IMG/VR virus record: IMGVR_UViG_3300031555_003080
Coordinates: 49,285 to 113,284 of that record
DNA length: 64,000 nucleotides
From: a virus
Reading direction: 5' to 3' (one strand)
The translations under genes and the position numbers were made by a program. Below are positions 3,845-4,792 of this stretch, one piece after another; the first letter of the stretch is position 1, and each line of letters starts with the position of its first letter. Under the pieces are notes generated by a model. That model ran no database searches. It saw only the letters and a program-made list of their open reading frames with translations, and was not told the origin of the DNA.

Positions 3845-4792
3845 TTATTTAATACTATATCCGAAATCTTTTGCGTGGAAATACTCTTGCCAGTAGCCCT
3901 CACGGTCATTTAGCTTAGAGCGCTCAACTTCTTCTACAACTTCGAATGTAAAGTTTTCAACTCCCAATTCAAGCATTGCAGGATATAATTTATTGCGGGT
4001 TGGCGTTTCTGCGCCTATTCCACGCTTAATGTGCTGTTTCCATCTTTCTGCAATATTAGCAGCCTGACCAATGTAGCACATTTGATTTTCAATGTTTGTA
4101 ATTTTATAAATACCAGTGTGAACACCAGTTCCAACTACACGTCCAATTAAATCTGTGTAAGGCTTTTCATAATAAACTTTCCAAATGACCTTATTTAAAG
4201 GTTCGCTATCTCGTAGATAAGGTACAACGGCACGTAAGCGCTCAATTTCTTCTACATCTACTGGAGATAATTGCAAACGATAAAAATCTTGCTTAATGCG
4301 TTGCTCTTCTGCTCGCTTATTAGCTTCTACAGCAGCAGTTAATTTAGCGGTTAAATCAGAAAGTTTTGCATCAACTTCTGCTAATTCTACTTGTTTTGCA
4401 TTAAGTTCTTCCATAAAATTATGAGTACAATCTTCAAGCATTACATAATACTCTTGTTTTGCAGTTTCTTCCATTTGTCTGTATTTACTAGACATGGTTT
4501 CTGCCGCTTGACTCATTTTTTCATTGGCAAGTTCATAACTCTTTTCATATAAAGAGTTAGCAGACTCTTCTGCTTGCTTTTGGAGAGTGGCAATATTTGA
4601 CAAAATTTCTTCTTTTTTTGCCATTAAAGAAGAATGTTCTTTGGTCAGTTCTAACAATTCGGCGCGTAACTGTTCATTTTTAATAGAAGTTTCTTCATCC
4701 AACTTCTAAGTTGTTTGCAGTTTGGGCTTTAGAACTACATAAAGAACGACCGCACCGATTAGAACTCCTATAATTAAAAATAGAATTTCCAT
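3845..4792 (-). CDS. GIY-YIG nuclease-domain protein with coiled-coil and an N-terminal TM segment; contains an in-frame TAG
   Basis: C-terminal GIYKITNIENQMCYIGQAANIAERWKQH...N is a GIY-YIG motif. The called ORF starts on TTG at 4702. Immediately upstream and in frame lies TAG (4708-4706), preceded by a 28-codon ORF from ATG 4792 encoding a TM helix MEILFLIIGVLIGAVVLYVVLKPKLQTT. Readthrough is inferred. Confidence 0.45.

Follow-up and report, generated by a model that had tools for sequence, protein, structure and literature searches.

A single gene on the minus strand of a 64,000-nucleotide stretch of viral DNA (IMG/VR record IMGVR_UViG_3300031555_003080, positions 49,285 to 113,284; the whole stretch is called the window here) appears, from comparison with its relatives, to run through an in-frame TAG that is read as glutamine (Gln) and to encode a nuclease with a transmembrane (TM) helix, a coiled coil and a GIY-YIG domain. 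On this reading, a mini open reading frame (ORF) upstream of the TAG and a nuclease ORF downstream of it would be one gene, to which we give a probability of roughly 85%. The parts of the gene that matter for the argument are the following.

3845-4792, minus strand: TM, coiled-coil and GIY-YIG nuclease gene of 315 sense codons plus TAA, with TAG codon 29 taken as Gln, as delimited by relatives' DNA and alignments.
4730-4792, minus strand: start codon and N-terminal TM helix, codons 1-21; the hydrophobic N-terminus is kept in nearly all complete family members.
4706-4708, minus strand: in-frame TAG, codon 29, taken to be decoded as Gln; TAG stands there in six close relatives (L001-L006) and CAA in TAG-free relatives.

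One reading frame across an in-frame TAG

ATG 4792 opens a 28-codon frame (MEILFLIIGVLIGAVVLYVVLKPKLQTT) that encodes a TM helix, whose 19-residue Kyte-Doolittle score of 3.18 is the top value in the close clade. This frame runs into TAG (4708-4706), which is followed by AAG, by TTG at 4702, by 283 further codons and by TAA (3847-3845). An earlier note on this DNA had reported this layout, namely a TM-encoding frame from ATG 4792, a TAG and a GIY-YIG ORF, and the window sequence bears it out. The note had also placed the TAG immediately upstream of TTG 4702; the in-frame TAG is real, but AAG (4705-4703) lies between the two. As the note had said, TTG 4702 lacks a Shine-Dalgarno sequence, and so does ATG 4792, whereas such a sequence is present at 36 of the 42 other gene starts in the window.

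Searching databases with the hypothetical readthrough product as query yielded 5,337 homologues, the best 120 of which are 315-316 amino acids long, cover 100% of the query and carry Q at the position of the TAG. This Q results from translation of the database with genetic code 15, since the DNA itself has TAG at codon 29 in all six close relatives examined (L001-L006). An identical frame layout with TAG at the same codon in six of six relatives is more than would be expected by chance. The genes of these relatives also contain two to four extra in-frame TAGs at sites where the window has CAA or CAG; counted in called genes only, relatives' TAGs stand opposite CAA in the window nine times, opposite TAG three times and opposite other codons five times.

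A second sample comprised 80 more distant IMG/VR loci with 39-79% identity, in which the number of TAGs per gene ranges from 0 to 20. Nearly every complete copy among them proceeds from a strongly hydrophobic helix through a coiled coil to the nuclease. The earlier note had suggested looking in relatives for just such a continuous architecture, or for a sense codon at the site of the TAG, and both were found: the former in the best 120 homologues as well as in the IMG/VR copies, and the latter in TAG-free relatives, where the aligned codon-29 site is CAA (Gln). The TAG-free copies (L008-L011, L018, L020-23, L072, L075 and L080) are uninterrupted under the standard code. A premature TAA or TGA is found in no family member, and a length of about 310-385 codons is kept by nearly all. 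When 63 unique genes are aligned, the columns with TAG are enriched 4.5-fold for Gln, the next residue reaching only 1.5-fold, and at Q243 and Q253, two near-invariant positions of the catalytic domain (in YIGQ and WKQH, respectively), TAG and Q together account for 63/63 and 58/63 sequences.

The same TM, coiled-coil and GIY-YIG gene is found with nine in-frame TAGs in Phass-1 (L007, OQ749652), a distant code-15 phage. For 2467-3447 of that genome, GenBank gives two 'hypothetical protein' coding sequences (CDS), of 47 and 145 amino acids, with 405 unannotated bases between them; when TAG is translated as Gln, the homologue is a single protein of 326 amino acids.

Genetic code 15 and a presumed decoder tRNA

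We counted as credible those window genes that have at least 50 amino acids, a positive coding score and no overlap with a transfer RNA (tRNA). These 59 genes end in TAA (45) or TGA (14) and never in TAG, and the TAG-ending ORFs in the window all score negatively for coding or overlap a tRNA. An array of 37 tRNAs at 48.8-63.9 kb includes one of 91 nucleotides with anticodon CUA and one of 74 nucleotides with anticodon UCA. The window therefore combines an in-frame TAG in a conserved gene, alignment of that TAG with Gln, a lack of TAG terminators and a tRNA(CUA); the lack of TAG terminators, the alternation of TAG with Gln and a Gln-type tRNA(CUA) are together the standard signature of genetic code 15. 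These features support the view that the window belongs to a large phage whose lineage has reassigned TAG to Gln, and from them we infer that the amino acid inserted at codon 29 is Gln. The earlier note had seen in this gene a hint of amber readthrough. The TAG does appear to be read through, but not as a site-specific event; a genome-wide reassignment of TAG to Gln, served by a phage-encoded decoder tRNA, is the better description.

In-frame recoded TAGs and the code 15 signature have been described in phages by Borges et al. (bioRxiv 10.1101/2021.08.26.457843), code 15 has been validated by proteomics in crAss-like phages (Peters et al., PMC9523058) and it has been reported for Phass-1 (Babkin et al., PMC10607447). 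The reading of TAG as Gln in phages is thus already known, and the gene itself adds to a known phenomenon. With code 15 phages (crAss-like, Lak, Phassvirus and others of the 'Caudoviricetes code 15 clade') the window shares the TAG/Gln alignment, a tRNA-Sup(CTA), the avoidance of TAG as terminator and a replication module that is largely compatible with the standard code. In contrast to these phages, however, the 64-kb window has TAG in one gene only, so that recoding is extremely sparse there. Neither a release factor nor an aminoacyl-tRNA synthetase was seen among the window ORFs that were annotated, which are not all of its ORFs, and the sizes of the remaining ones make the presence of either unlikely.

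52416-52506, minus strand: presumed TAG decoder tRNA of 91 nucleotides, anticodon CUA at 52474-52472 (Rfam, 52.5 bits).
52447-52463, minus strand: extra hairpin of this tRNA, with stem ATTCC/GGGGT and the 7-nucleotide loop C-U-UUG-A-A, UUG lying at 52456-52454 (from the sequence and from pairing in relatives).

We presume that TAG is decoded by this tRNA(CUA) of the phage's own, whose putative identity is Gln. Its acceptor stem is of the Gln type (U1-A72, G2-C71, G3-C70, G73), and its D arm matches that of the window's tRNA-Gln(CUG) at every position. The U1-A72 pair has been reviewed as a hallmark for the tRNA-Gln-specific GluRS2 and for amidotransferases (PMC9976931). The extra hairpin sits between the CUA anticodon arm and the T arm, and its loop is shaped like the anticodon loop of tRNA-Gln; the arm as a whole consists of a stem of 3-5 bp and an anticodon-like loop of 7 nucleotides. 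A class II tRNA (Leu, Ser or Tyr) was considered for the decoder and rejected, as the acceptor and D arms are Gln-type.

The hairpin recurs in related tRNAs. A scan of viral contigs in which only the CUA arm and the T loop were fixed and the insert was left free returned 32 contigs with 19 unique tRNAs, 17 of which have the loop YU-YUG-MR or, in L103, CC-UUG-AA. Because MAFFT placed the extra hairpin out of register, pairs were counted with the register anchored on the motif and with slid and shuffled controls. In the 16 tRNAs with the strict motif, the 3-bp core stem is paired in 47 of 48 cells, with compensatory variants, and pairing collapses when the register is slid. Phass-1, which shares the nuclease gene family with the window, also has an 88-nucleotide Sup-CTA whose body is near-identical to that of the window decoder, and a 98-nucleotide Sup-CTA with a different anticodon stem shares the CTCTGAA loop.

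How else might the TAG be explained? The locus might hold two genes, a conserved TM micro-protein of 28 amino acids ending at the TAG and a cytosolic coiled-coil GIY-YIG nuclease starting from TTG 4702. These are exactly the ORFs that a standard-code ORF finder lists, and the Phass-1 homologue is given as two CDS in GenBank. We consider two genes very unlikely. Close relatives have TTA or TTC in place of the TTG, which lacks a Shine-Dalgarno sequence; where the next in-frame Met stands, relatives often have Thr; TAG-free relatives encode one uninterrupted protein; and under the standard code the downstream TAGs, some of which fall within the catalytic domain, would leave no working nuclease. 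Furthermore, the position of the first TAG differs among family members, so that no constant peptide is made and the 28-residue peptide is not a conserved micro-gene; the earlier note had named a conserved micro-gene beside a nuclease with a conserved start of its own as the outcome that would speak against readthrough, and the relatives do not show it. It is scarcely credible, too, that a CAG-to-TAG change, whether an amber mutation or a sequencing error, inactivated the gene in this genome. Such a change needs one transition, and the window copy has a single internal TAG, but the same TAG stands in six independent assemblies, members with up to 20 in-frame TAGs nearly always keep their length with none truncated by TAA or TGA, and strong conservation extends downstream of the TAG, where the catalytic residues do not vary. 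The homologue, alignment and Phass-1 evidence taken together leads us to exclude a two-gene reading, a pseudogene and a sequencing error.

Site-specific programmed readthrough of a working TAG stop is improbable, though somewhat less so. It would be context-dependent and of low efficiency, and would yield the TM peptide and a minor full-length isoform with the code unchanged. The single TAG of the window copy and the conservation of the codon-29 TAG in the close clade agree with it, and competition from release factor 1 (RF1) would give both products. However, TAG occurs at many other positions in relatives and in other genes, none of the 59 credible window genes ends in it, and a dedicated tRNA(CUA) is encoded. 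As for a reassignment of TAG to an amino acid other than Gln, the decoder tRNA is of class II size at 91 nucleotides, with a long extra arm as in Ser, Leu and Tyr tRNAs; ARAGORN labels it 'Pyl'; and isotype prediction is uncertain, about 30% of phage suppressor tRNAs having been predicted as non-Gln in the theta-ribozyme study. Yet TAG alternates specifically with Gln, near-invariant sites included, the acceptor stem and D arm described above are those of a tRNA-Gln, the extra arm, which is not of the Ser/Leu/Tyr type, presents a Gln anticodon, and 'Pyl' is merely the default name that ARAGORN gives to a CTA anticodon. We therefore hold another amino acid to be very unlikely, and retain the reading of one gene with its TAG decoded as Gln.

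The hairpin of the decoder has counterparts in tRNAs for other amino acids. The only other over-long tRNA in the window outside the Leu/Ser/Tyr class is a tRNA-Ile(UAU) of 95 nucleotides (58675-58769, minus strand), which has an extra hairpin (58723-58709) between its anticodon arm and T arm, with the loop CAGAUUA and GAU at 58717-58715. GAU is the canonical Ile anticodon. The exact pattern found no relatives of this tRNA, and looser patterns were used; with these, 53 of 57 unique long phage tRNA-Ile(UAU) inserts, in which stem covariation is abundant, have GAU in the hairpin loop, against a shuffled mean of 5.8. Similarly, CCA lies in the hairpin loop of 21 of 22 unique long inserts of opal-suppressor tRNA(UCA) (shuffled mean 2.4), and CUG or UUG in that of 14 of 16 Sup-CUA inserts (shuffled mean 2.5). 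The long tRNA(UCA) genes (loci L305-L424) have Trp-like acceptor stems and the loop N-U-CCA-A-A, which is the anticodon loop of tRNA-Trp; their hairpin is a third independent instance of the pattern. Ordinary tRNA-Gln and tRNA-Ile(GAU) genes in the examined loci are without the extra arm. There are exceptions, and the rule is therefore frequent rather than universal: extra arms without a cognate anticodon occur in one long tRNA-Ile(UAU) (loop CUCACAA), in the Sup-CTA of L094 and L105, in a long tRNA-His and in a long tRNA-Thr, and some Sup-CTA tRNAs are short (9 of 41 in the examined loci, and one of 72 nucleotides in Phass-1).

Tentatively, and with somewhat less than even confidence, we suggest a natural class of phage tRNA with tandem anticodon-type hairpins, in which one loop decodes (CUA, UAU or UCA) and the other carries a canonical anticodon of the same amino acid (YUG, GAU or CCA, respectively). 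We give the same limited credence to the extra arm being a functional, hitherto undescribed identity element. The second loop, acting as a 'pseudo-anticodon', would let the host glutaminyl-tRNA synthetase (GlnRS) or non-discriminating glutamyl-tRNA synthetase (ND-GluRS), isoleucyl-tRNA synthetase (IleRS) or tryptophanyl-tRNA synthetase (TrpRS) charge a tRNA whose decoding anticodon they would not otherwise accept. A pseudo-anticodon that preserves recognition by class I, anticodon-reading synthetases would be the most economical reading of the pattern. Both hairpins have flanks like those of a canonical anticodon arm, the first being preceded by the D arm and one nucleotide and the second followed by 3-6 nucleotides and then the T arm; from this one may speculate that the tRNA alternates between two stackings.

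The amber suppressor supE (glnV) of E. coli is a tRNA-Gln body with a CUA anticodon and a short variable loop, and it inserts Gln at UAG; compared with supE, the phage decoder adds a hairpin that displays the canonical Gln anticodon. A natural case of such an arm was not found in the literature searched, outside which most subscription journals lie. An engineered counterpart is known, in that a pseudo-anticodon on the variable arm of amber-suppressor tRNAs can enhance charging (Mukai 2020, PMC7590224). There, as we suppose for the phage tRNA, the variable arm mimics the cognate anticodon arm and recruits the anticodon-binding domain of the synthetase. However, the system of Mukai 2020 is synthetic, built on an allo-tRNA chassis and fusions of histidyl-tRNA synthetase (HisRS), whereas the phage hairpin is natural, is conserved with covariation and occurs in tRNAs of the Gln, Ile and Trp classes.

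The 74-nucleotide tRNA with anticodon UCA (61296-61369, minus strand) is of normal length, and the array of 37 tRNAs lacks a tRNA-Trp(CCA). Reading UGG by wobble as a Trp tRNA is one possible role for it, opal suppression is another, and both could apply, yet TGA ends 14 of the 59 credible genes. At 54587-54660 (minus strand) ARAGORN reports a tRNA-like gene with a two-nucleotide 'anticodon' (gc), which at 34.6 bits is barely above the Rfam gathering threshold and may be an aberrant tRNA or a pseudo-tRNA.

A putative membrane-tethered nuclease and its load of TAGs

Downstream of the TAG, the protein falls into three parts.

4283-4705, minus strand: helical, coiled-coil stalk, codons 30-170, part of a continuous helix at residues 2-170 in the AlphaFold2 model (pLDDT 82-98).
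4118-4282, minus strand: conserved two-helix module, codons 171-225, with the motif EPLNKVIWKVYYEKP, packed on the nuclease core (alignment and AlphaFold2).
3848-4117, minus strand: C-terminal catalytic domain of the I-TevI-type GIY-YIG fold (Pfam, TIGR01453, alignment and Foldseek).

The catalytic domain matches PF01541 (GIY-YIG) with E = 2e-9 and TIGR01453 ('group I intron endonuclease') with 63.8 bits against a cutoff of 56.05, and Y229, Y240, R250, H254 and E298 are invariant in 55 family sequences. An AlphaFold2 model computed from 55 diverse family members (mean pLDDT 90) places, after the long helix, two further helices at 177-188 and 197-220 and an alpha/beta core at 227-304, which Foldseek superposes on the I-TevI catalytic domain (1ln0/1mk0) with a TM-score of 0.81 and a root-mean-square deviation of 1.8 A. 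Two viral proteins without a name match the full length by fold. On the strength of its motifs, of the Arg, His and Glu residues and of the modelled alpha/beta core, we assign the predicted domain to the GIY-YIG superfamily. The family comprises 506 clusters at 50% identity (E ≤ 1e-30), and the similarity to the Phass-1 protein begins at residue 171. Profile searches and the model gave no match to a DNA-binding domain in the N-terminal 225 residues, that is, in the TM and helical regions. The residues KPK follow the TM helix and, by the positive-inside rule, would put the C-terminus in the cytoplasm; the predicted nuclease domain is thus probably cytoplasmic and tethered to the membrane. Host DNA, degraded for nucleotide salvage, and incoming competitor DNA at the membrane are plausible candidate targets.

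The protein has the same catalytic fold and residues (GIY, YIG, Arg, His and Glu) as I-TevI and the GIY-YIG homing endonucleases, but it differs from I-TevI in having a TM helix, a helical region of about 170 residues and a reversed order of domains. Similarly, whereas I-TevI-type mobile elements are sporadic, this gene holds a conserved position: in all close relatives it occupies a fixed slot in the series 88-amino-acid gene, nuclease gene, small gene, thyA and DHFR. Given the reversed architecture and the fixed slot next to thyA and DHFR, and with no DNA-binding domain found, we do not class the protein as a homing endonuclease of the I-TevI or Seg type. Membership of Uzume, a single-gene GIY-YIG anti-phage defence, was also considered. 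The UzuA profile (PADLOC PDLC03973, which has no curated cutoff) matches residues 110-312 over profile positions 93-275 of 278, covering both the helical region and the C-terminal GIY-YIG domain, but this match is weak (E = 7e-5, 20.5 bits) and membership was not accepted; moreover, the window gene is phage-encoded, not bacterial.

In the window, this is the sole gene whose internal TAG has coding sequence on both sides, and in relatives the family is a TAG hotspot. Across 60 loci it carries 2.04 TAGs per 100 codons, compared with 0.19 in neighbouring genes, and the ratio TAG/(TAG+CAA+CAG) is 0.30 in the family and 0.06 in the neighbours (odds ratio 6.9). The TAG density of the family gene exceeds that of its neighbours in 53 of the 60 loci, and the large replication genes gyrA, gyrB, ligA, thyA and dnaB have no TAG. 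Of the 56 members that contain TAG, 55 have their first one within codons 3-60, just after the TM helix, so that standard decoding would give no more than a short membrane peptide.

Borges et al. (bioRxiv 10.1101/2021.08.26.457843) described a nuclease of Agate phages, encoded in an early gene and carrying the GIY-YIG-type annotation of group I intron endonuclease, that is preferentially recoded, and proposed that its production is thereby delayed. The two cases are alike in that both genes lie in an early or replication region and have recoded stops far above their neighbours. In contrast, the Agate gene recodes TGA to Trp and the window gene TAG to Gln, and the former is an intron endonuclease, whereas the latter encodes a membrane-anchored protein that is syntenic and vertically conserved and has its catalytic domain at the C-terminus. 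As the TAG pattern fits their proposal, we take gating to be the most likely function of the TAG, although we see the chance that it truly serves as a timing gate on the nuclease as about even. With host machinery alone, that is, with RF1 active and little suppressor tRNA, translation would stop after the TM helix and no nuclease would be made; the full-length nuclease would appear only after the suppressor tRNA has accumulated. The TAG would then be a translational gate on a potentially toxic nuclease in an otherwise standard-code module. The upstream terminator and the missing Shine-Dalgarno sequence would lower expression further.

4813-4839, minus strand: intrinsic-terminator-like hairpin and T-run between the upstream 88-amino-acid gene and the nuclease gene, kept in relatives with compensatory changes.
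4828-4856, minus strand: sigma-70-like TTGACA-17-TAGAAT, matching at 11 of 12 positions and probably fortuitous.

We discounted the sigma-70-like site as a sign of early transcription by the host RNA polymerase, the -35 hexamer being TTTATA in relatives.

Several points weigh against these interpretations. The hotspot statistics come from related sequences, so that their independence is overstated. The ratio of TAG to TAG plus Gln codons is 0.23-0.31 in every domain, that is, TAG is scattered in proportion to Gln codons; the early first TAG is partly due to the start of the Gln-rich coiled coil, and the 5' shift of the first TAG in a permutation test is modest (0.125 versus 0.158). Some members of the family have no TAG at all, which means that gating is not essential to the function of the protein. 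The suppressor tRNA is encoded together with the 'early' genes in one co-oriented block, and may therefore be available early itself. Finally, in genome collections the family occurs solely in phage-like contigs or in gut metagenome-assembled genome (MAG) bins labelled Clostridia, Bacilli or 'Mollicutes'; the MAG labels hint at Bacillota, but the contigs concerned, of 100-180 kb, are probably mis-binned phage.

Genomic setting and implications

All genes of the window lie on the minus strand. Together they make up a jumbo-phage block of replication, nucleotide-metabolism and auxiliary genes (lysozyme, GyrB, RNase H, GyrA, NAD-ligase, ThyA, DHFR, PhoH, NAMPT, RNA ligase, and MVP-like, SPFH and SLH proteins). 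The description of the nuclease gene as an early-region gene would follow solely from its neighbours ligase, gyrase, ThyA and DHFR. The Phass-1 homologue adjoins nrdD. Megablast with the locus as query found no DNA match among 50,697 deposited phage records.

The 88-amino-acid protein encoded upstream (4857-5123, minus strand) is unusually strongly conserved, with 100% amino-acid identity to relatives whose neighbouring proteins reach only 75-95%, and has weak Z-alpha or winged-helix-like Pfam matches. Small, typical GIY-YIG genes come and go in the relatives: L002 has one at 9074-9577 (167 amino acids, three TAGs), and in L004 a homing-endonuclease-like GIY-YIG gene of 225 amino acids (15765-16442) interrupts the dnaB region. 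The TM-anchored nuclease, by contrast, keeps a fixed place. Elsewhere in the window, a run of overlapping ORFs in different frames at 19691-21346 (minus strand), all with GTG or TTG starts and locally richer in GC, could be a frameshifted, intron-containing or mis-called gene. Cargo atypical of phages lies at 30761-33202, 18165-19658, 43685-45313 and 45507-47072 (all minus strand) and comprises an 813-amino-acid protein with a major-vault-protein shoulder and repeat domains, an SPFH/flotillin-like protein, an SLH-domain protein and a DUF2828/DUF7788 protein. The SLH-domain protein hints at a host envelope of the Gram-positive or Negativicutes type.

For annotation, the consequence is that the standard code breaks this family up into fragments without meaning, of which the Phass-1 record in GenBank is already an example, and that gene callers need code 15 here even where one TAG alone reveals the recoding. 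What emerges is a large, uncharacterised family of putative membrane-tethered GIY-YIG nucleases that is selectively loaded with recoded stops, and this supports the idea of recoding as a brake on dangerous proteins beyond structural and lysis genes. The anticodon-like arm in Gln, Ile and Trp tRNAs offers a testable hypothesis for how host synthetases charge phage suppressors. If true, it would explain how stop codons can be reassigned in standard-code hosts without a phage-encoded synthetase and, together with TAG hotspots in toxic genes, it would constitute a complete and self-contained translational timing switch. Such arms could also supply natural scaffolds for genetic-code engineering.

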